This document shows, piece after piece, positions 11,136 through 62,300 of a DNA stretch of 64,000 nt. Origin of the DNA: Candidatus Magasanikiibacteriota bacterium (GTDB lineage Bacteria > Patescibacteriota > Patescibacteriia > Magasanikbacterales > GWA2-37-8); assembly GCA_036744835.1 (NCBI GenBank), contig DAIOHD010000001.1, forward strand, positions 82,320-146,319, read 5' to 3'. The stretch's first letter is position 1; the number at the start of each line of letters is the position of its first letter. The translations under genes and the position numbers were made by a program. The notes under the pieces were generated by a model. It did no database searches, was not told the origin of the DNA, and saw nothing but the letters and a program-made list of their open reading frames with translations.

Positions 11136-12101
11136 TTATTTTTGGAAAAATTTAATAAAAAAGTGACCGATACGCGGAAAAATACCTTCATGATGCATTC
11201 GCATAAAAAGATACATCCAAGTTCCGGTATTGAAAGCATTGTAAAAACCACCGATAAGAATTATCAAAAAAGTAATAATTAAAATGCTTAAAACAACTGA
11301 TAAATTCAGCAAAATAATGCTATTGAAGAGCCCGGCGATAAACCATAAAACAGTAGCCGGAATAAAAGATAATAAAATTATCATAGAAATAAATGAAGCT
11401 AAGATCAAGTCTAAAAAAAGCATTACTAAACTGATTTCAAACGAAACCAAAAAATGATTTTTAAAAAGAACAATACCGTCTTTGAGACCGGTAAAGAATT
11501 TCTTATTTTCCACCACTACATACCCGGATGCAAAAACAGTAATGGCGGAAATTACCAATCCCAAAAAAATAACGATAATAAAAGATAAAATCAAAAATAA
11601 AGAATTCCAAAAATTATTTTCCGGAACAATAAACCATAATCCGGTGGTAAAAACCAACAAAGATAAAAGTGTTAATTTTCTTATAATATCATAGCCTAAC
11701 ACTCTCCAAAAGTACTTATAACTTTTGTGCCAGGTGTCACTGAGATTTGAATGTTTTTTCTTTTTATAATATTCACAAACATTAATAATCAGAGATGTTT
11801 GTGCACAAACCGAGATAAAAATTACAATTGCTAAAACTGCTAAAATAATTTGTATAAACCAAACAATCGCAACAAAATTTCCTGGATCACTTACGGATAA
11901 TAATTTTAAAAGACCAAACCAGGGAAAGTGACTGATGTCCATTGTTTCTTTACTAACTAAAATCATTTGGCCCCAAAAACCTCCCATACCAAAAGGACTG
12001 ACAAATAGAGCGGAAAGAATCCCGAAAATCCAAAGAGACTTATTATTCCAGATAAGTTTGAATGATTGACTTAAAGCTTCGCGATAAGAAGGGGAGTTCA
12101 T
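11136..12101 (-). CDS. polytopic integral membrane protein of unknown function, co-operonic with pilB (stop/start 3 nt apart)
   Basis: 321-aa ORF with 6 or more hydrophobic helices. Not PilC-like by length or motifs. Confidence 0.5.
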   Translation of the reverse strand: MNSPSYREALSQSFKLIWNNKSLWIFGILSALFVSPFGMGGFWGQMILVSKETMDISHFPWFGLLKLLSVSDPGNFVAIVWFIQIILAVLAIVIFISVCAQTSLIINVCEYYKKKKHSNLSDTWHKSYKYFWRVLGYDIIRKLTLLSLLVFTTGLWFIVPENNFWNSLFLILSFIIVIFLGLVISAITVFASGYVVVENKKFFTGLKDGIVLFKNHFLVSFEISLVMLFLDLILASFISMIILLSFIPATVLWFIAGLFNSIILLNLSVVLSILIITFLIILIGGFYNAFNTGTWMYLFMRMHHEGIFPRIGHFFIKFFQK

Positions 12102-12406
12102 AAAAACTAAAAGTTAAAAGTTGAAAGTTAAAAAGCTCACGCTGTTAAATCCCCAAAGGAGTCCGCCTAAGGCGGAATTTAACTGGGGTAAATAAAGTCC
12201 AAAAATACAAAAAATTGTATTCTTTTGGAACAAAGATATTATAGCATATTTTGGCTAAAATGTGGAAATTTTTGAAAGGACAATTATCAACATCTAAAAA
12301 GAGTTGACAAAAAGGGTTTTTTTAGCTAAAATATCCTGTCGTTTATAAGACAAAAAATAAGTTCCTTTAATATAAAATATCAACAACGTTTTTTAGGAGA
12401 AGTACA

Positions 12407-13027
12407 ATGGAAAAAGAGATGATTTCCAAAATCGCGCCTTATTTTGAAGCGCGGCGATTATTTGAAAAACATGATCCGAACTCTCTTCCGAGCCTCAATA
12501 TCTTTCCTTTTTTTAAAAGGGAAAATATAAAGGCTTATCTGGACAAACACTACCGGCTTACTCCGGAGGAAGAAAAGGAATTTCTTTCTTGGTCTTTGGA
12601 ATGTATCATTATGCTTGAACCGGAAAATGATTTATCCAAGGCCAACGAACTTCTCCGGCTTTTCAAAAAAGAGTTTGACGATTTCTCGGTCAATAAGGCG
12701 GTGCTCAACGCTTTGGTTCAACAGAATTTCTGTGATGAAATTGCGCTTGACGACTTGCTTGACCTGTTGCGTAACTTGGAAATCAAACCTGGTTCTTCGG
12801 AAGTGTCCGATCTGATGGCTAAGTATACAGAACGCTTTTGTGAAAAATCTGCTAAATCTTTTGAAAACACCAAGAGGATTTTGACCAGTTTCAAAATGCT
12901 GGCGGAAAAATTTGAGGTGGATCTCAAGGATTTTAAAAACTGTTTTGAATCTTTGGTGAGTGATTATGAAAAATACCATCATTACAACTCTGCCGCTATT
13001 CTCAGAGAGTTTGCCAAAGAACTCTAA
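12407..13027 (+). CDS. hypothetical alpha-helical protein
   Basis: 206-aa ORF. Promoter TTGACA(12305)-17-TAAAAT, RBS AGGAGA, terminator hairpin ACCGCCCTTAAACAAGGCGGT at about 13046-13066. Confidence 0.5.
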   Translation: MEKEMISKIAPYFEARRLFEKHDPNSLPSLNIFPFFKRENIKAYLDKHYRLTPEEEKEFLSWSLECIIMLEPENDLSKANELLRLFKKEFDDFSVNKAVLNALVQQNFCDEIALDDLLDLLRNLEIKPGSSEVSDLMAKYTERFCEKSAKSFENTKRILTSFKMLAEKFEVDLKDFKNCFESLVSDYEKYHHYNSAAILREFAKEL

Positions 13028-18128: not shown

Positions 18129-18220
18129 TGTCATTGCGATCCGCCGGCTGGCGGAGAAGCAATCCCACGGATTTTATATAAAATAATGAGATTGCCACGG
18201 CCTTTGGCCTCGCAATGACA
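18129..18220 (+). mobile_element. MITE-like element copy downstream of miaB
   Basis: GTCATTGCGATCCGCCGGCTGGCGGAGAAGCAATCCCACGG...GCCACGGCCTTTGGCCTCGCAATGACA. Confidence 0.7.
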
Positions 18221-28350: not shown

Positions 28351-28481
28351 AGATAATTTTAAATTTATAATTTTCAATTTTTATTGAATTTTTAATGATT
28401 AAATTTTGAAGGTTCAATTATTTTTTGATTAATTAAAAATTGACCATTCATTAAAAATTGTAAAATTAAAAATTAAAAATT

Positions 28482-31274: not shown

Positions 31275-31280
31275 TTTTAA

Positions 31281-31792
31281 GTTCAAAGCGGATGGTCGCT
31301 TGGGTCGGAATACGACCCGAGAGGAAAGTCCGAACGCCTCTATCGATAAACTATTATAGACAGGCTAAAAATTAAGAATCTCTTGGTTTTTAGAGGTCTC
31401 GTTTGTCTGAAAGGTAAGGGGTAGCGGGTAACGCCCGCCGTTGCATTGGTGACAATGCAAAAGGGAAAGTGGCACAGAGACTATACTAACGAGTCCCGCT
31501 TGCGGGACGAGTTATCCCGCCCTTCTGGGTGGAAATAACTTGAAATTAATTTTTCTCGTCAAAGGTGAAAAGTGTATGAATGTCTTATATATGGGCTATC
31601 ATACTCGATTGGCAGTGATGCCAAAAACGTGCCAAACCCTGCCTGGCGCAAGAGCAATGTTTTCATTCTCAGAATGAATTCAGAAAGTTAGCTCGCAAAG
31701 ACTGGCACAGTGATGTGACCGGCAAGATAAATGACCATCTCTCTCGATTATGTCGGGACAGACGAAATTCGGCTTATAGCTTTGGATAAAAC
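31281..31792 (+). ncRNA. rnpB: RNase P RNA (bacterial type), expanded to about 510 nt
   Basis: Conserved GAGGAAAGTCCG (P4 5' strand), GGGTAACGCC, ACAGAcgAAatTCGGCTTAT (P4 3' strand). P1 pairing between CAAAGC at the 5' end and GCTTTG at about 31779. Terminator hairpin GCACCCAAAACGGGTGC + T-run at 31804-31835. Confidence 0.65.
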
Positions 31793-39083: not shown

Positions 39084-39101
39084 AATATAAATTTAGTAAT
39101 T

Positions 39102-41912
39102 ATGCAGGAAATGTTAAAAATAAAAGGAGCAAGAGTACATAATTTAAAAAATATTTCGGTAAATATTCCGAAAAATAAATTAGTTGTTATTACTGGTTTG
39201 TCTGGTTCGGGAAAATCCAGTTTGGCGTTTGATACTATATATGCCGAAGGCCAACGTCGTTATGCGGAAAGTTTATCCGCTTACGCGCGTCAATTTATGG
39301 AGGTGCGTGATAAACCGGATATTGATGGGGTGGAGGGCTTGTCTCCGACTATCGCTATAGATCAACGCATTAACACTCAAAATCCTCGTTCTACGGTTGG
39401 TACAGTAACTGAAATATATGATTTTTTGCGTTTGCTTTTTGCTCGAGCCGGTAAACAATATTGTCCGGATTGCGGAGAAGAAGTAGTATCTTATAGTTTT
39501 GGAGAAATAGTTGAAATGACAAGGGGATTGGGGAGAAAAAATAAAGAAATAACCATTTTATCTCCTTTGGTACGCTTTGAAAAAGTGGAACAACCAAAAA
39601 TATTATTGGAAAAAGTGGAACAATCCGGTTTTGATCACGTACGTGTTAATGGAAAGATAATGAAAATAAATGAACTAGCTGGTTTGGCTTTTGATCCAAA
39701 GAAAAAATATAATGTTGAAATAGTCACCGGTAGAATAAATGATATCAAAAAACAAGATCCTACAAAATGGGTAGAAACTGCCTTGGATTTGAGTAATGGT
39801 TTAGTGTATGTTGCCACTGATACGGAAGATAAGATATTTTCCACCGTCGGCCTTTGTTTGCGTTGTGGAAGAATTATGGCGGATTTGGATATTCGTAATT
39901 TTAGTTTTAATAGTCCTTTTGGCGCTTGTCCGCGTTGTACCGGTCTTGGAATTACCATGGAAGTTGACCAGACTCTGGTTATTCCAAATCCGCGCTTATC
40001 TCTTTTAGAAGGAGCCATCCAGCCTTGGACTCGTATTACTGGTAATCAAAATTATTACCAAAAAATGCTTAAAGCGGTAGGGGATAAATATGGATTTTCC
40101 GTGGAGGTTCCCGTCTCTTCACTTTCTACAAAAACAATGGACATTATTTTAAAAGGAACGGGAAAGGAATTATATGAAATAGATGATAAAAAAATAGTTT
40201 ATCCTGGAGTAATAGAGGATTTACGACAAAGACATTTACAGACCGATTCAGAATATATACGTAAAGAAATAGAGCAGTATATGAAAGAACAAACTTGTTC
40301 TTTGTGCGAAGGAAAAAGACTAAAAAGAGAATCTCTCTCGGTAAAATTTGAAGGACAAAATATTGCCGATCTATCCGAAATGAATATCGAAGATAGTATT
40401 TTGTTTTTTAAAGGAATATTAAAGAAAAACGGTTTAGCCAAAAAAACAATTGTTGAACCTATTATCAAGGAAGTTGTTATGCGTTTAGAAAATTTATCTC
40501 GAGTAGGTTTGGACTACCTCAGTCTTACTCGTTCTATGAATACCGTTTCTGGTGGGGAAGCAACTAGAGTTCGTTTAGCAACCCAATTATCTTCTGGCCT
40601 TACCGGCGTTATTTATGTGTTGGACGAACCATCTATTGGTTTACACGCTCGAGATAATCAAAAGTTGATAGACACTTTAAAATATTTACGTGATTTGGGT
40701 AATACCGTGATTGTGGTAGAACATGATGCTGCCATTATGAAAGAAGCTGACTATTTGATTGATGTCGGTCCTGGAGCTGGGGTATATGGAGGCAAGATCG
40801 TCGCTCAAGGTACTTTGAGTGAAATAAAGAAAGTTAAAAATTCTTTAACTTCGGATTATTTGTTTGGTCGAGCGGACGTTTCTGAGGATTTTGAAGATTT
40901 CAAAAGTAAAAATAATAAAGATAATAGTAAAAAAATAAGTATTATAGGTGCTCAGGGTTTTAATTTAAAAAATATTAATGTTGATATACCTCTTTCTAAG
41001 TTAGTTTGTGTAACCGGTGTTTCTGGTTCCGGTAAATCAACTTTGGTTGTTGATATTTTGGGTAAATATTTGTCTAAAACTTTTTATCGTGCCAAAGATG
41101 AGCCTGGTGTTCATAAGGAAATTAAAGGTGCGGATAACATAGATAAGGTTATTGCTATTGACCAGAGTCCGATTGGTCGCACTCCGCGTAGTAACCCGGC
41201 AACCTACACCGGGGTATTTACATTGATTCGCGATCTGTACTCTTCTTTACCGGAAAGCCGTATGCGTCGTTATGACGCTGGAAAATTTAGTTTCAATGTT
41301 AAAGGCGGCGGACGTTGTGAGACTTGTGCCGGAGAAGGATATATCCGTATTCCAATGCAATTTTTGGCCGATGTTTTTGTGGTATGTAACGATTGTAACG
41401 GCAGTCGTTATAATCAAGAAGCTTTAGATATCCATTATCATGGAAAAAATATTGCCGAAGTTTTAAAGATGACAATCGAAGAAGCCTATAAATTTTTTGT
41501 TGATCAAAGACCGATTGCCGATAAACTTAATATCTTACGACAAGTAGGTTTGGGTTATTTAGAACTTGGCCAGCCGGCCACCACCTTATCTGGCGGGGAA
41601 GCGCAAAGAATAAAATTGGCTACGGAATTAGCCAGAGCCTCCACCGGAAAGACTCTTTATATTTTGGATGAACCAACTACCGGATTGCATTTCGAAGATA
41701 TCAAAAGATTGCTTTTAGTTCTTAAACAATTGGTGGAAAAAGGAAATACAATTTTGATTATTGAACATAATCTAGATGTAATTAAAAATTCTGATTGGAT
41801 TATTGAACTTGGCCCGGAAGGCGGCAAAAGAGGAGGAGAGTTAGTAGCTGTTGGCACAGTTAAAGATATTATAAAAAATAAAAAGAGTTGGACAGGGAAA
41901 TACCTAAAGTAA
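39102..41912 (+). CDS. uvrA: excinuclease ABC subunit A (canonical, with UvrB-binding and insertion domains)
   Basis: 936 aa. Two ABC modules ([14 protein letters not shown]; [11 protein letters not shown]), zinc fingers, signature LSGGE motifs. Confidence 0.95.
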
Positions 41913-46669: not shown

Positions 46670-46783
46670 TTCATAAAGTTAAATAGGATACGAAATACGA
46701 AATTATACGAAATTACGAACTGAAGAATTAATAATTGAAAATTCATTAAAAATTGTAAAATTAAAAATTAAAAATTGTTTGGT

Positions 46784-48449: not shown

Positions 48450-48477
48450 AGTAAACAATTTTAAATTTTTAATTTTT

Positions 48478-48544
48478 GTCATTGCGAGCGGAGCGAAGCA
48501 ATCCCACAGTGGGTTCGCCACGGCCTACGGCCTCGCGATGACAC
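48478..48544 (+). mobile_element. short MITE-like element copy between nusG and rplK
   Basis: GTCATTGCGAGCGGAGCGAAGCAATCCCACAGTGGGTTCGCCACGGCCTACGGCCTCGCGATGACAC. Confidence 0.7.
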
Positions 48545-50769: not shown

Positions 50770-50955
50770 TTTTTAAATATATAATTCTATAAAAAAATAA
50801 AGTAATTTAAAAAATAAAAAAACTTCGCCCAATCAGCGAAGTTTTTTGTTTGTTTTGTCAATTTTTAATTATTAATTATCAATTTCTCAAATCAGTGGGA
50901 TTGCTTCGTTTCACTCGCAATGACAGTAGTCCGTAGTCTGTAGTCCGAAGTCCAA

Positions 50956-55276: not shown

Positions 55277-55390
55277 AATAGCAGGTAAGCTTGTAAGCTG
55301 GTAAGCAATAAAGCTAAATTTGATAATTAAAAATTAGTGATTGAAAATTAATTAAAAATTGTAAAATTAAAAATTGAAAATTTTCGTCAA

Positions 55391-57520
55391 ATGAAATTTA
55401 AATTAGTTTCTACATACAAACCAGCCGGGGATCAACCAGAGGCCATCACAAAATTAGTGAATGGTATATCTTCTGATATGCGACGACAAACTTTGCTTGG
55501 GGTGACTGGTTCGGGAAAAACTTTTACTATTGCTAATGTTATAGAAAAAACCCAGAAGCCGACTTTGGTTATTGCGCACAACAAAACTTTGGCTGCTCAG
55601 CTTTGTAATGAATTTCGCGAATTTTTTCCCAACAATGCAGTAGAATATTTTGTTTCTTTTTATGATTATTATCAGCCAGAGGCGTATATGCCTCACACTG
55701 ATACCTACATTGAGAAAGAAGCACAGATCAACGAAGAAATAGATAGACTACGTCATGCTTGTACTCAAGCGTTACTTACTCGCAAAGATGTGATAATAGT
55801 GGCATCAGTATCGGCTATTTATAATCTTGGTTCACCAAAAGAATATGAACGCACGGTTTTGCATTTGGAAGTTGGGCAAAATCTGGATCGTCGGGGTTTG
55901 ATGGCAAAATTAGTTGAAATGAAATTTGAACGCACCAATGGAGAACTCAAACGCGGAACATTTTTATTGCGCGGACAGGTTTTGGAATTGGTTCCGGTAA
56001 ATGAAGAAAAAATTTACCGCTTTGGGCTTAGTGATAAAATAGATTCCATTGAAATTTTTGATGCTTTGACTCGTAAACGAATCGGGGAAGTAAAAGATAT
56101 GTGGCTTTTTCCAGCCAAACACTATGTGGTATCGCAAGAAACTAAAAATAACGCTTTGCAAGCTATCAGAGACGAATTGAAAATCAGATATGATGAATTG
56201 ATGCGACACGGAAAATTGTTGGAAGCGGAAAGATTGAAACGCAAAACCAATTATGATTTGGAATTGATAGAACATATCGGTTATTGCAACGGGATAGAAA
56301 ATTATTCCAGATTTTTTGAAGAACGAAAAGCAGATGAACCGGCTTTTACACTGCTTGATTATTTTAATTATGGAGCAGGGGATTTCTTGACTGTGATTGA
56401 TGAATCACACGTGACTATTCCGCAATTGCGCGGGATGTTTGCGGGCGACAGATCAAGAAAAGATACTTTGATTGAACATGGATTTAGATTACCTAGCGCA
56501 CGTGACAATCGTCCGCTCACTTATGATGAATTTGATGAAAGAACCAAACAATTGATTTATGTTTCCGCCACTCCCAATGAATATGAAGTTGATTTGAGTG
56601 ATCAAGTCGTGGAACAAATAGTTCGTCCAACCGGCTTGATTGATCCGGAAGTTATTATTGCGCCTGTGACTGGCGGTAAAGTGTCATTGCGAACCCAAAG
56701 GGCGAAGCAATCCCACGATGAGATCGCCACGACCTCAGGAACGCTCAGCGTTTCCTCTGGTCTCGCGATGACAGGACTTTCCCAAATTGAAGATTTGATA
56801 ATTCGGATTGAAGATAAAATAAAAAAGAACGAAAGAACTTTGGTAACCACGTTGACCAAAAAAATGGCGGAAGATTTATCCGAATATTTGAAAGAGAAAA
56901 AAATAAAAGTTACATATTTACACAGTGATATAGAAACTTTGGAACGTATTCAAATTATCACAGATTTACGTCAAGGGAAAATCGATGTTTTGGTTGGTGT
57001 GAATTTATTGCGTGAAGGTTTGGATATGCCGGAAGTATCGCTCGTGGCGATTTTGGATGCGGACAAAGAAGGGTTTTTGCGTAGCGCCACCAGTTTGATT
57101 CAAACTATCGGGCGTGCAGCGCGTAATGTGAATGGTCAAGTGATTTTGTATGCGGATAATATTACTGGTTCTATCCAAAAGGCGATAGATGAAACCAATC
57201 GTCGTCGAAAAATTCAATTGGCATATAATAAAAAACATGGCATCACGCCAAAGACGATTGAAAAAACTATCAAAAATATTTTGGCGGATTTTGGTTTGAC
57301 TTTGAACACAGAAAAACAAAAAGGAAAATTAAGAAACAAAGCAAAAAAATTATCAGTGACTGACTTGGATTTGCTTGGCGATGGCAGACCTCTAGAAACC
57401 ATAATTAAAGAAAAAGAAAAATTAATGCGTGAAGCTGCGGAACATTTGGAATTTGAGTTGGCGGCGATACTCAGGGATGAGGTGAGGGAGTTGAAAAACA
57501 GGATACGAAATACGAAATAA
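55391..57520 (+). CDS. uvrB: excinuclease ABC subunit B carrying an in-frame approx. 31-33-aa insertion encoded by a MITE-like repeat
   Basis: Helicase motifs (GVTGSGKT, DESH, beta-hairpin, TLTKKMAEDL) and C-terminal UvrC-interaction coiled coil. The insertion is at 56683-56773. Confidence 0.9.
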   Translation: MKFKLVSTYKPAGDQPEAITKLVNGISSDMRRQTLLGVTGSGKTFTIANVIEKTQKPTLVIAHNKTLAAQLCNEFREFFPNNAVEYFVSFYDYYQPEAYMPHTDTYIEKEAQINEEIDRLRHACTQALLTRKDVIIVASVSAIYNLGSPKEYERTVLHLEVGQNLDRRGLMAKLVEMKFERTNGELKRGTFLLRGQVLELVPVNEEKIYRFGLSDKIDSIEIFDALTRKRIGEVKDMWLFPAKHYVVSQETKNNALQAIRDELKIRYDELMRHGKLLEAERLKRKTNYDLELIEHIGYCNGIENYSRFFEERKADEPAFTLLDYFNYGAGDFLTVIDESHVTIPQLRGMFAGDRSRKDTLIEHGFRLPSARDNRPLTYDEFDERTKQLIYVSATPNEYEVDLSDQVVEQIVRPTGLIDPEVIIAPVTGGKVSLRTQRAKQSHDEIATTSGTLSVSSGLAMTGLSQIEDLIIRIEDKIKKNERTLVTTLTKKMAEDLSEYLKEKKIKVTYLHSDIETLERIQIITDLRQGKIDVLVGVNLLREGLDMPEVSLVAILDADKEGFLRSATSLIQTIGRAARNVNGQVILYADNITGSIQKAIDETNRRRKIQLAYNKKHGITPKTIEKTIKNILADFGLTLNTEKQKGKLRNKAKKLSVTDLDLLGDGRPLETIIKEKEKLMREAAEHLEFELAAILRDEVRELKNRIRNTK
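56683..56773 (+). mobile_element. MITE-like palindromic element (TIR GTCATTGCGA/CTCGCGATGAC) inserted in-frame in uvrB
   Basis: Shares TIRs and the internal GAAGCAATCCCAC...GCCACGACC core with the copies at 18129-18220, 48478-48544, 57544-57631 and the partial copy at 50895-50925. Confidence 0.75.
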
Positions 57521-57543
57521 TACGAAATTACGAACCGCGTGCT

Positions 57544-57631
57544 GTCATTGCGAGGAGTGAAACGACGAAGCAATCCCACGAAGTTCAGAAAGCAGTGGAA
57601 TTGCCACGACCCTTCGGGTCTCGCAATGACA
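57544..57631 (+). mobile_element. MITE-like element copy just downstream of uvrB
   Basis: GTCATTGCGAGGAGTGAAACGACGAAGCAATCCCACG...GCCACGACCCTTCGGGTCTCGCAATGACA. Confidence 0.7.
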
Positions 57632-57779
57632 CCAAAATCGCCCCAAAAGGCGGTTTTTTGTTCCCCCTCTCTTTTTTAAGAGAGGGGTTAGAGGAGAGTC
57701 TTTAAAAAAACTCCACCCTAACCCTCCTCTTGAGGAAGAGGAGGGAATAAAATTGGCTAATTTTAGCTAAATTATAGTA

Positions 57780-59404: not shown

Positions 59405-59714
59405 TTTTTCCTCTCTTTGAAAATTAATAATATAAAGGACGTATAAAGGTATTTAATAGGAGTTTGAGGAGAATGTCAAATGGTTTTTTAAATCCCAATG
59501 TCCAATTCCCAATGCCCAATGAATGCCCCCGCCTTCGCCCTTTGGGCTACGGACGGGCAAGCAAGCCTAAATGTCCAAAAATAATTAGGGTTTAGGATTT
59601 GGGGTTTGATTGGTCATTGGGGTTTGGTCATTAAAGTAAGGTTGACTTTCACCCAATCTCATAGTAAACTTTTTATCATACCCCTATATAAACAAAGTGA
59701 GGGGCATTTTGCTT

Positions 59715-62300
59715 ATGGAAAACAAAATAACAATCAAAGGTGCTAGGGAGCACAACCTCAAAAACATTTCTCTAGAGCTTCCGCGCAATAAAATGATCGT
59801 TTTTACAGGACTGTCCGGTTCGGGCAAGTCTAGCTTGGCGTTTGACACTATTTTTGCCGAAGGTCAAAGACGGTATATCGAAAGTTTGTCCGCTTATGCG
59901 CGACAATTTTTGGGTGGGATGCAAAAACCCGATGTTGACGAGATTGAGGGTTTGTCTCCGGCTATTTCTATTGATCAAAAAGCGCACACCGCCAATCCGA
60001 GATCAACTGTCGCGACTATTACAGAAATTTACGATTATTTACGCGTACTCTATGCTCGTATTGGCAAACCTTATTGTCCGCTTTGCGGAACCAAAATTGA
60101 CCGCATGAGCACCGACGAAATCAAAACCCATATTTTGGATAAACTTATTCATATTTTCAAAGACAATAAAAAAGTGATAAAAGAATTGGTGGTTTTGTCA
60201 CCAGTAGTGCGTGGTCGGAAAGGGGAATATTACCAAATGCTTTATGATTTTTATAATTCCGGATTTGCGCAAGTGCGCGCGGACGGGGTTTATAAAGACC
60301 TCAAAGAAACTTTGATTTTATCCAAAAACAAAAAACACACGATTGAAGTGGTGACGGATAGGTTATTTTTAAACAGTGCGGAAAAATTAACGGAAAAAGA
60401 AGAATTACAGAGATTGTCCGAAGCCTTGGAGAGTGCGATTGATTTGAGCAATGGCTTGGTGACCATAGTTTATCCGGATAAAACCGAACAAATTTATTCC
60501 ACCCTTTATTCATGTCCTCATGACGGGTTTTCTTTTCCGGAAATTGAACCGCGCTTATTTAGCTTCAATAGTCCATACGGATATTGCGAGGCATGTACGG
60601 GTTTGGGTACGGAAACTTTGTTTTCAGAAACAGTTTGCCCGAAATGCAACGGTAAGCGTCTAAACAATACCGCTCTTAGTGTAAAAATCGGCGAAAAAAA
60701 TATTTATGAAACTGTTTCTTTGACTATTGCCCAAGCTCGAGAATTTTTTACCGCACTTCCGGAAAAACTTTCACCCAAAGAATTGGAAATTAGTTCTGTG
60801 GTATTGCGAGAAATCAACAATCGTTTGGATTTTATGTTTAACGTTGGCTTACACTATCTGACATTGGAGCGTCGGGCTGGAACATTATCCGGCGGGGAAG
60901 CGCAACGTATCCGTTTGGCGTCTCAAGTCGGCACTAAATTAGTCGGTGCTTTGTATGTATTGGACGAACCTACTATTGGTTTACATCAAAAAGACAACGA
61001 TCAGTTGGTAAAAACTCTACGTCGACTTTGTGATGCGGGGAACACTATTATTGTAGTGGAACACGACGAAGATACTATTTTGGAGAGTGATTGGTTAGTA
61101 GATTTTGGACCGTTGGCCGGGAAACACGGTGGAGAAATAGTGTATTCTGGACCATTACAAAATATGCTTGATAATAAAATTTCAAAAACTAAAGAATTTG
61201 ATTGTAAAATTATCGGCTCCACTCAAAAATCTCTCACTGGTAAATATTTACGTGGCGAAGAAAAAATTTCTATTCCAGCGCATCGTCGCAATGTGGATTC
61301 ATCTGTTGCTAAAATTAAAATTAAAGGTGCTAAATTTCATAATTTGAAAAATATTGACGTGGAAATTCCGCTTCGTCGTTTTGTTTGTTTGACCGGAGTA
61401 TCCGGTTCTGGCAAATCCACGCTGATGCACGATGTTTTGTATAAAAATTTATTTGAAAGATTTAATAAAATCAAAAAAACCGAGCCCAACTGTAAAAGTT
61501 TGACCGGCACGGAATATTTGGAACGTATCATTTCTATTGATCAGGGTGCTATCGGCAGGACTAGTCGTAGTAATCCGGCGACTTACACCAAAGCTTTTGA
61601 TCATATCCGTGAAATTTTTGCCGCTACTCCCGAAGCGCGGATGCGTGGGTATAAAATAGGGAGGTTTAGTTTCAATGTGCCTGGTGGCAGATGTGAACAT
61701 TGTGAAGGTAAAGGAATGTTGGAAATTGAGATGCATTTTTTACCCAGCGTAGAAGTAGTTTGCGATGTCTGTAAAGGTAAACGTTTTACTTCCGAAACTT
61801 TACAAGTTCACTACAAAGGCAAAAATATTGCCGATGTTCTTGGTATGACCGTGGCGGAAGCTGAACAATTTTTTAAAGACATTCCGTTTATCCATGATAA
61901 GTTGAAAATTTTGAATGAAGTTGGTTTGGATTATCTGACACTCGGACAATCTGCCACCACGCTCTCCGGCGGCGAAGCGCAGCGTATCAAATTATCTCGC
62001 GAATTAGCGCGACCTGGTAATACGCGCACACTTTATTTACTGGATGAACCAACTACCGGCTTGCATTATGAAGATGTAAAAAAATTGATGGATGTTTTGC
62101 AGCGATTAGTTTCGGTCGGTAATACAGTGATGGTGATAGAACATAATTTGGAAGTTATCAAATGTGCTGATTGGATAGTAGATCTCGGGCCTGAAGGCGG
62201 AGATAAAGGGGGTAGTGTTGTTGCCAGTGGCACACCCGAGGAAGTAGCACGTAAAGCTGGGAGTTTTACGGGGCAATATTTGAAAAGAATGTTAGATTAA
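59715..62300 (+). CDS. UvrA paralog lacking the insertion domain (UvrA2-like)
   Basis: Start [17 protein letters not shown]. Both ABC modules and zinc fingers are present. Only about 12 aa separate CEACTGLG from CPKCNGKRL, versus about 120 aa in the uvrA at 39102. Confidence 0.85.

Follow-up and report, generated by a model that had tools for sequence, protein, structure and literature searches.

The DNA analysed here is a 64-kb window of Candidatus Magasanikiibacteriota bacterium (GCA_036744835.1, DAIOHD010000001.1), and all coordinates are window positions. On its plus strand lies an intact uvrB open reading frame (ORF) of 709 aa (55391..57520), the product of which has the solved UvrBs 9gy7, 2fdc and 1d9z as its best structure matches (E ~1e-230). 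The alignment to these is interrupted at a 90-nt element (56683..56772, plus strand) that is inserted in frame between PVTGG and QIEDLIIRI and that forms the subject of this analysis. The element begins GTCATTGCGA, ends TCGCGATGAC and spans codon base 3 of V431 to codon base 2 of T461, encoding the peptide SLRTQRAKQSHDEIATTSGTLSVSSGLAM. When the T and A of its TGTC tags are included it measures 92 nt (56682-56773). Loci with the element or a UvrB homolog are labelled L and homologous proteins are labelled P.

Filled and empty alleles of uvrB

A database search returned UvrBs 88-93% identical to that of the window, some with the site filled and some with it empty. The filled homologs were P0002-4 (709 aa), P0007 (701 aa) and P0018 (partial). 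Empty sites were present in UvrBs 88-92% identical to the window protein (P0005, P0006, P0008 and P0010-15); these read PVTGKKGEKSQIEDL or PVTGKVGVKSQIEDL, compared with, e.g., AKQSHDEIATTSGTLSVSSGLAMTGLSQIEDLIIR across the insert junction of the window UvrB. In the DNA the filled allele reads GGC GGT AAA GT[90 nt]A GGA CTT TCC CAA, and deletion of 56683-56772 in silico leaves GGKVGLSQ, a linker that is in frame and as long as that of the empty alleles. No target-site duplication was visible at the uvrB site or at the other window copies inspected.

A first-pass annotation of this DNA had described the uvrB ORF as continuous, with a repeat in frame between the two flanking peptide motifs, which agrees with the ORF (55391-57520) and the element (56683-56772/3) as delimited here. 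Its estimate of 31-33 added residues was too high, as exactly 30 codons are added relative to empty close relatives (709 vs 679 aa). The gap relative to solved UvrBs is larger, 35 residues (429-463), because the linker of this clade is already a few residues longer. The same annotation held the extra peptide to be repeat-derived and missing from E. coli UvrB, and this is borne out by the arms shared with intergenic copies of the element and by the lack of a counterpart in solved UvrBs. A lineage-specific segment, polymorphic for presence among relatives, had also been suspected; both points were confirmed by UvrBs 88-92% identical without the insert and by the occurrence of filled and empty alleles among close relatives. 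Overall, the observation and its interpretation proved correct in every part that could be tested, with adjustments to the size, to the description as MITE-like (miniature inverted-repeat transposable element) and to the claim of novelty.

The window UvrB is present as an identical protein on three contigs from separate assemblies, and the filled site recurred in relatives that had been assembled independently (L003, L004, L006 and L007; JGI and ENA). The insertion is therefore not an assembly chimera, and the artefact that had been raised as a concern is ruled out. That the segment is a hairpin repeat inserted in frame into uvrB is considered true with high confidence.

Element lengths in the filled alleles were 90 nt (window, L003 and L004), 87 nt (L007) and 66 nt (L006), all of them multiples of three and free of stops. 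In the 87-nt variant a part is read in the other frame (GEAIP for KQSH), after which the frame is restored. Because all three variants keep the frame without a stop, the segment would be translated and not spliced; the element is almost certainly translated, with its frame under selection, as judged from these alleles.

Residues 2-428 and 464-705 of the window protein were aligned by HMMER to solved UvrBs, leaving 429-463 without a counterpart, and the break corresponds to chain residue 429 in 9gy7 and 2fdc. In an AlphaFold2 model based on 62 homologs (mean predicted local distance difference test score, pLDDT, of 79.5) residues 430-461 form the largest low-confidence stretch (pLDDT 25-40, coil), preceded by the strand that closes the first RecA-like domain (420-424) and followed by the helix that opens the next (465-478). 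Model and structure alignment together put the insert in an inter-domain linker, as had been proposed, and its simplest reading is a disordered surface loop in the linker between RecA-like domains 1a and 3. The uvrB insert is most likely a tolerated passenger rather than useful, and the peptide itself is probably without function.

A different condition was observed in the linker of L133 (P0009, P0016 and P0017), which is otherwise empty and carries 4-5 extra residues, ETRLP, from a CCTACC-GGAA-GGCAGG hairpin without a tagged arm. This could be an excision footprint or a separate mini-insertion.

Anatomy, fold and covariation

The uvrB element is an inverted pair of hairpin units, each ~35-50 nt long, with the layout T-GTC-ATTGC-GA-[variable G+C stem-loop]-GAA-GCAAT-CCCAC. 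The left arm (56682..56716, plus strand) comprises the TGTC tag, the outer stem ATTGC/GCAAT, the GA/GAA internal loop, the distal hairpin CCC-AAA-GGG and the tail CCCAC. The right arm (56722..56773, minus strand) reads TGTCATCGCGA...GGCGATC on the minus strand; the outer stem is of the doubly compensated form ATCGC/GCGAT, and a nested GGAACGC-TCA-GCGTTTCC stem enlarges the distal hairpin. All arms of the window begin with TGTCAT, and copies in other phyla often start CGTCAT. Arm tails are CCCA or CTCA and unit lengths are 26-51 nt.

Covariation was evaluated in 293 arms from 130 loci, with the pairing test performed on a non-redundant subset. Positions 6-8 of the 5' box covaried with the 3' box, the combinations being TGC/GCA (196), TCT/AGA (18), CGC/GCG (10), TCC/GGA (9), CCT/AGG (8) and TTC/GAA (6). 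In the arm stem 87.8% of cells paired and double-change cells numbered 71 vs 31 upon shuffling, a value equalled in 0/500 shuffles, and the signal collapsed in slid registers. GTC-AT...AT-C is invariant and the next three pairs covary across at least 6 subfamilies.

Folding of the uvrB element resulted in -20.1 kcal/mol (z -3.8) as single-stranded DNA (ssDNA) and -39 kcal/mol (z -5.0) as RNA, relative to shuffles. The minimum free energy (MFE) prediction, a cloverleaf with a four-way junction, was rejected as the selected fold: ATCGC/GCGAT is compensated only within the arm and across arms leaves a U.G pair and an A.C mismatch. This pattern of compensation indicates that the selected fold is two hairpins resembling repetitive extragenic palindromes (REPs), not the MFE cloverleaf. 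No Rfam family was found for the arms: the window was scanned at gathering thresholds, and 56600-57750 and three loci with the GIY-YIG nuclease genes described below at permissive ones, with only chance miRNA-like matches to long hairpins.

Copies in the window and in other genomes

Allowing at most 1 mismatch, GTCATTGCGA occurs 12 times in the window vs 2.7 expected, and 0/100 shuffles reached 12. The internal box GAAGCAATCCCAC has exactly 5 exact occurrences, each beside a GTCATTGCGA-type end. The first-pass annotation had listed four intergenic copies with the same ends and cores, one of them partial, and these were recovered as three full dimers and one solitary arm, all four between ORFs. 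The first dimer (18129..18220, plus strand; also given as 18130-18219) lies 41 nt past an ORF and before a terminator-like hairpin, and its right arm and the left arm of the uvrB copy are complementary at 83% of 35 nt. A short dimer at 48477..48543 (plus strand; 48478-48542, 65 nt, without tags) has a right arm of the TCGCGATGAC type, as in the uvrB copy. The third (57543..57631, plus strand; also given as 57544-57630) lies 24 nt past the uvrB stop, before the terminator, and has an orthologous copy in L003. The solitary arm, TGTCATTGCGAGTGAAACGAAGCAATCCCAC, is located between convergent ORFs (50895..50925, minus strand; also given as 50895-50924), and the unit of the family is therefore one hairpin. 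Inverted dimers nonetheless make up 4 of the 5 window copies. Three of the four intergenic copies lie 24-48 nt past an ORF 3' end, and two of these precede a terminator-like hairpin.

An exact scan for GTCATTGCGA-N(4-30)-GAAGCAATCCCAC, with one genome per species, found the arm boxes in at least 120 stretches from many phyla. Among the matches listed, with phyla as labelled in the database, were Chloroflexota, Cyanobacteria (Nostoc, Calothrix), Bacteroidota (Pedobacter, Flavobacterium), Pseudomonadota, Planctomycetota (Brocadia), Methylomirabilis, Bacillota, Nitrospirota, Omnitrophota and Patescibacteria. Seven third-party metagenome-assembled genomes labelled 'uncultured Gammaproteobacteria bacterium' (L008, L038, L055, L058, L088, L095 and L118) appear Patescibacteria-like in their genes and their labels are probably wrong; the copy in L058 is nearly identical to window 57544-57630. 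Sister families with other stems (GTCATTCTGA, GTCATTCCGA, GTCATTTCGA and GTCATCCTGA) co-occur with the family and even nest.

UvrA also contains in-frame inserts of the same superfamily, two of them in L131 (16144-16255 and elsewhere in the gene) and one in L008 (2835-2921). An RsmA/KsgA-like methyltransferase gene (L088, 2396-3093) contains three to four in-frame inserts, some of them nested.

Relation to known repeat systems

The first-pass annotation had likened the element to Rickettsia palindromic elements (RPEs), which Ogata and co-workers reportedly described in 2000 and 2002 as repeated palindromes lying in frame in housekeeping genes. In the window uvrB, too, the ORF remains functional and in frame with a repeated palindrome at a site that the structure permits; both kinds of insert vary in presence between relatives, and both encode a peptide that is tolerated in a loop or at the surface. 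RPE-1-type elements differ in being ~100-150 bp with a conserved peptide of their own. The likeness goes beyond analogy, since the tag, the AT-closed stem and the CC-rich tail are those of the CGTC-tagged REPs, the superfamily to which RPE-4 and RPE-6, alone among the RPEs, have been assigned (PMC3733652).

This superfamily was described by Di Nocera, De Gregorio & Rocco 2013 (BMC Genomics 14:522, PMC3733652), who distinguished families CGTC-1 to CGTC-4 and included Neisseria dRS3 as well as RPE-4 and RPE-6 of R. conorii. The tag is often TGTC, the stem opens AT, the tail is approximately CCA and most copies are dimers. Intragenic copies encode 20-30 residues and are strikingly often found in UvrABC, UvrD, PolA, RecBCD and DnaE2; in-frame cases listed for R. 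conorii include a uvrB-like gene with two single units, as well as uvrC, dnaE and ksgA. The authors argued that nucleotide excision repair (NER) and recombination genes are non-randomly targeted. Their survey covered 5 phyla, mostly Alphaproteobacteria, and found no CGTC-flanked tyrosine transposase in any species (PMC3733652).

The present family shares with these repeats the unpaired CGTC/TGTC tag, the A-T/T-A stem opening, the CC-rich tail, inverted dimers, a location shortly past ORFs and in-frame insertions in uvrA, uvrB, uvrC, dnaE and ksgA that encode ~8-30 residues. Judging from a back-translated peptide (VIAGLDPAIH), CGTC-3 of R. palustris appears to have the ATTGC/GCAAT outer stem too. 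The link to RPEs rests on the literature placing RPE-4 and RPE-6 among CGTC repeats and on the peptides ...HGMT and ...RFRGND, which reflect the same ...ATGAC end. CGTC-1 to CGTC-4 have a continuous 8-9-bp stem and a 4-5-nt loop, whereas the window element has a 5-bp outer stem, a GA/GAA internal loop and a variable 3-7-bp distal hairpin, and it therefore fits none of the four. The R. conorii uvrB-like inserts are single units at other protein positions, unlike the dimer of the window. Further differences from the CGTC families described are the Patescibacteria host and arm boxes that are identical across many phyla. On the evidence of tag, AT-closed covarying stem, tail and dimer arrangement, the element is assigned to the CGTC-tagged REP superfamily.

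A second relevant system was reported by Chenal et al. 2025 (Nat Commun 16:2388, PMC11893778). SsnA, a ~100-aa GIY-YIG protein, binds and cuts the Neisseria NTS (CGTCATTCCCGCGMAVGCGGGAATCYRG, which contains dRS3) in ssDNA only, and its gene is typically hairpin-flanked (NTS-ssnA-NTS). Ssn homologs and Ssn-related motifs (SRMs) are widespread, with Rickettsia and Wolbachia among the richest genomes; intragenic or in-frame copies and Patescibacteria are not mentioned for the SRMs (PMC11893778). The present family is alike in its GTCAT(T/C)-led hairpin ending (A/G)ATC, in the small, single-domain, hairpin-flanked GIY-YIG gene and in the wide range of phyla. A GIY-YIG gene with hairpins on both sides was found in L014, L016, L134, L106 and L129, not in the window. 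Canonical NTS-like units (TGTCATYCCCGCGAAGGCGGGRATCCAG) that match the published SRM search pattern, HGTCWYN(0-2)YYVSBRHN(0-5)WNVSBRGN(0-2)RNCYNB, are present in sister loci L001, L006 and L007; in L006 and L007 they follow uvrB closely, at the position that is taken in the window by a dimer of the present family. By this comparison of motifs the element is a longer-stemmed relative of SRMs.

The claim that such an insertion had not been described for this kind of genome stood in part. In-frame CGTC REPs have been known since 2013 in Proteobacteria; no Patescibacteria or candidate phyla radiation (CPR) case was found in the literature, neither of the above two papers naming these bacteria, and sequence-string searches returned primers and unrelated matches. 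What is known comprises in-frame CGTC REPs in uvrABC and RPE-4/6; what is new is the family, the host phylum, the UvrB hotspot and the swapped sites described below.

Association with GIY-YIG nuclease genes

Neighbouring genes were clustered all against all (3,588 ORFs from 120 element-bearing loci). No shared transposase was found in this set, and the clusters contained only common families, e.g. ABC transporter, histidine kinase, epimerase and DnaJ. A small GIY-YIG family recurs, with arms on both sides at 0-120 nt in every case. These arms are of the GTCATTGCGA type in L014 (Nostoc), L016 (Dehalococcoidales) and L134 (NCBI: Thermodesulfobacteriota) and of sister families in L106 (GTCATTTCGA) and L129 (GTCATCCTGA/TCAGAATGAC), the latter being the locus of a Patescibacteria UvrB homolog. 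In L129 the arm-bracketed gene (12158-12559) lies between uvrB and uvrA, and the uvrB directly upstream carries a GTCATTCTGA-family dimer in its linker. The left arm of L134 stops 11 nt short of the ATG, and a first right-arm-type unit directly follows the TGA stop. As the arms bracket the GIY-YIG gene, the dimer looks like an arm-gene-arm cassette minus the gene.

Using the L016 protein as the query, at least 8000 matches to the arm-associated GIY-YIG family were obtained. The best 120 (P0121-P0240) are ~95 aa and 77-87% identical, with named members from different phyla. Most are located on very short contigs, which would be usual for a gene that is mobile or present in several copies. The identity across phyla parallels the invariance of the arms. 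Y8, Y19 and E66 of the L016 protein have the same spacing as Y6, Y17 and E64 of SsnA, with an offset of 2 (manual count). The only Pfam family assigned to the homologs was PF01541, with no specific NCBIfam family, and the nearest PDB entry was UPF0213 BH0048 (E = 1.6e-7).

These observations suggest a route by which the repeats may move. The tagged units would be the ends of small selfish cassettes composed of an arm, a ~95-aa GIY-YIG gene and a second arm, and the dimers would be gene-less, non-autonomous derivatives of such cassettes. Dimers would then be moved or copied in trans via ssDNA by an Ssn-type nuclease recognising tag and hairpin. Only in-frame, stop-free copies in a permissive linker would be tolerated, and an insertion of this kind could survive in uvrB.

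Several points weigh against such a mechanism. Neither the 64-kb window nor any of the 22-kb loci from its relatives contains a GIY-YIG or Ssn-like gene, and the published degenerate SRM pattern had 0 matches in the window, its arms failing the pattern. The nearest solved relatives of the arm-flanked proteins belong to UPF0213, and their membership in the Ssn clade (cd10448) is putative. Arm orientation around the gene varies, being inverted in L129, L106 and L134, direct in L016 and outward in L014. Ssn has been demonstrated only to cut ssDNA and modulate transformation, not to transpose. One GIY-YIG protein, followed across many contigs, had the single context gatB - GIY-YIG - IF-2B, and this copy showed no sign of having moved recently.

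Mobilisation by an Ssn-like nuclease is nevertheless the best-supported explanation from the comparisons made here, and it is favoured with modest confidence. The account as a whole, a CGTC-REP-type hairpin dimer that is translated in the uvrB linker and would be mobilised in trans by an Ssn-type nuclease, is considered probable.

Recurrent occupation and turnover at the uvrB locus

The best 120 of roughly 8000 UvrB homologs, from Patescibacteria, were aligned across the linker. At least 8 extra residues were present at this position in 43 (36%), compared with at most 5 homologs at any other internal site, and the insert peptides are recognisable translations of several repeat families. Linker DNA was inspected in four lineages. 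L128 contains the same family in another frame and at another junction (TCT[GTCATTGCGA...TCGCAATGAC]AAT), L129 and L131 contain sister-family inserts, and L130 an unrelated CCCTCCCCC...GGGGGAG family. Families, frames and junctions thus differ, and at least 4-5 independent insertion events at the UvrB linker are certain; the peptides suggest many more.

A repeat of the L130 kind was also observed elsewhere at the locus. An 83-85-nt hairpin of this unrelated family (CCCCCTCTC..GAGAGGGG..CCTCCTCTTGAGGAAGAGGAGGG) lies at 57668-57752, past the uvrB terminator and ahead of the promoter that follows; only the window has it, and it is missing in L003, L007 and L001. The same kind of repeat is in frame in other Patescibacteria UvrB linkers (PLLGGVGGGL...SPxRGG; DNA inspected in L130).

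In a UvrB tree with the linker masked, filled alleles were never monophyletic (0/200 bootstraps), the window protein grouping with the empty P0005 and P0006 and the filled P0002-4 with P0016 and P0017. The filled alleles on this tree all have the same junctions, and this combined with their scatter implies lateral allele spread by recombination, or repeated loss.

Turnover in place was apparent in the linker, where the centre of the L007 uvrB copy matches the adjacent intergenic copy, and also downstream. Between the uvrB stop and the terminator the window and L003 have a GTCATTGCGA dimer, L007 (1722-1795) a canonical NTS-like dimer and L001 (~12080-12190) a GTCATCCTGA dimer, and L007 and L001 have both flanks in common at this site. 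This suggests replacement or re-targeting at an occupied site. Insertion might then be non-random: an occupied site would become a target, and families would swap via their shared TGTCAT...ATGACA ends on ssDNA, catalysed by an Ssn-like GIY-YIG nuclease. We regard this extension as doubtful. If true, it would explain the linker inserts of many families, the scattered alleles with the same junctions and the varied family downstream of uvrB, and it would provide a mobility mechanism for CGTC REPs, which has been lacking since 2013.

Conservation and alternative explanations

Between the window and L003 the element differs at 3/93 aligned positions, compared with 16.2% in the uvrB flanks and 44.8% at four-fold sites; the probability of at most 3 differences in 90 at the flank rate is 1.3e-4. 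The element is, in this pairwise comparison, far more conserved than the neutral sites of uvrB, which counts against the account favoured above in so far as pure 'junk' would be no explanation. Distal hairpins of the orthologous uvrB copies grow and shrink with complementarity kept (ACC-CAAAG-GGT, ACCCGC-AGG-GCGGGT and ACCTCGC-AAG-GCGAGGT).

Both observations, along with the RNA fold of -39 kcal/mol and the argument that NER and recombination genes are non-randomly targeted (PMC3733652), would be accounted for if the nucleotide sequence of the element were itself selected in uvrB, either as an mRNA or ssDNA structure tuning expression or co-translational folding, or as an Ssn cis site limiting recombination at the NER locus. 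Such exaptation is judged improbable. The intergenic copy after uvrB is equally conserved between the window and L003 (3/87 differences by manual count) with diverged flanks, and the constraint would therefore be at the family level, or reflect concerted evolution, and not a uvrB-specific function. Equally close relatives, moreover, work without the insert, and the filled alleles of L006 and L007 differ strongly in their variable parts.

Inverted doublets of tagged REP hairpins are reportedly the replicative unit in the REPIN / REP-RAYT system (work attributed to Bertels & Rainey in 2011, Nunvar in 2010 and Ton-Hoang in 2012). REPINs and the present elements are alike in these doublets, in a single-copy domesticated nuclease gene that is repeat-flanked and in their ssDNA hairpin logic. 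A REPIN moved by RAYT, a tyrosine (HUH/Y1) transposase of IS200/IS605 type, would fit the inverted dimers of short hairpins with an unpaired 5' tag, the absence of a target-site duplication and the position downstream of ORFs, and an ssDNA-hairpin mechanism is plausible. The tag of REPINs is, however, GTAG, as opposed to TGTC/CGTC here, and the nuclease is of the HUH/Y1 type instead of GIY-YIG. CGTC repeats flank no tyrosine transposase in any species surveyed (PMC3733652), and no Y1 gene emerged from the neighbour clustering, which had limited sensitivity and included no Pfam scan for Y1 across the loci. Movement by RAYT is thus quite improbable.

The first-pass description as MITE-like was partly upheld, in that the dimer resembles a gene-carrying unit that has lost its gene. 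A classic MITE, derived by internal deletion from an insertion sequence with a DDE transposase that recognises its inverted repeats and leaves a target-site duplication, is however very unlikely. The 10-nt inverted-repeat ends (GTCATTGCGA/TCGCRATGAC) and the short, repeated, non-coding nature of the copies are as expected of one, but a target-site duplication was seen at none of the copies, each arm folds on itself with covariation confined to the arm, and an arm occurs on its own at 50895-50924. No shared transposase was found in the 120 loci and the only gene repeatedly bracketed by arms is the GIY-YIG nuclease. The element is instead a REP-type hairpin dimer.

Finally, there is next to no likelihood that the segment is an ancestral part of UvrB or a lineage-specific expansion of its linker, that it stems from a chimeric assembly, or that it is removed in the manner of an intron or intein: many Patescibacteria UvrBs do have extra residues at the same position, but the DNA arms are those of the intergenic copies, filled alleles are not monophyletic, presence varies among UvrBs 88-92% identical, inserts of other lineages are different repeat families at different junctions, independent assemblies agree, and the 90/87/66-nt variants lack a stop as well as intein or intron signatures, with nothing found in Rfam.

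Implications

Genomes of Patescibacteria are ~1 Mb and otherwise highly streamlined. Protein-coding palindromes are here extended to these bacteria (CPR) from Rickettsia and other Proteobacteria. The RPE, CGTC-REP and Ssn/NTS literatures become tied to one hairpin family with arm boxes identical across phyla, and the recurrent occupation of the UvrB linker together with UvrA speaks for an enrichment of such inserts in NER genes, as had been suspected earlier. For annotation, many odd peptides such as VIASEAKQSH..., ...LAPRNDN and ...GLAMT in CPR proteins and spurious ORFs are explained. The filled, empty and swapped alleles constitute a natural series for testing the mechanism of mobility.

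Other features

A different kind of selfish insert was observed in P0077, a UvrB homolog of 1223 aa in which 540 residues interrupt the Walker A region; the Pfam matches precomputed for it, PF14528 and PF14890, are presumably of intein type. In the window, the bacterial class A RNase P RNA (31280-31792) measures 513 nt vs a 367-position model and contains large lineage-specific insertions. The element is not among them: the sequence at 31693, where the end motif is nearly matched, was inspected and contains no copy. Two diverged uvrA-like paralogs (39100-41750 and 59713-62110) contain repeats D1, D2, D5, D7, D13 and D15, ~60-79% identical over the repeats. A conserved A+T-rich motif, ..ATTAAAAATTGTAAAATTAAAAATT.., is present at 28401-28481, 46696-46776 and 55302-55382, the last directly before the uvrB start codon, and may be a shared promoter or leader element.

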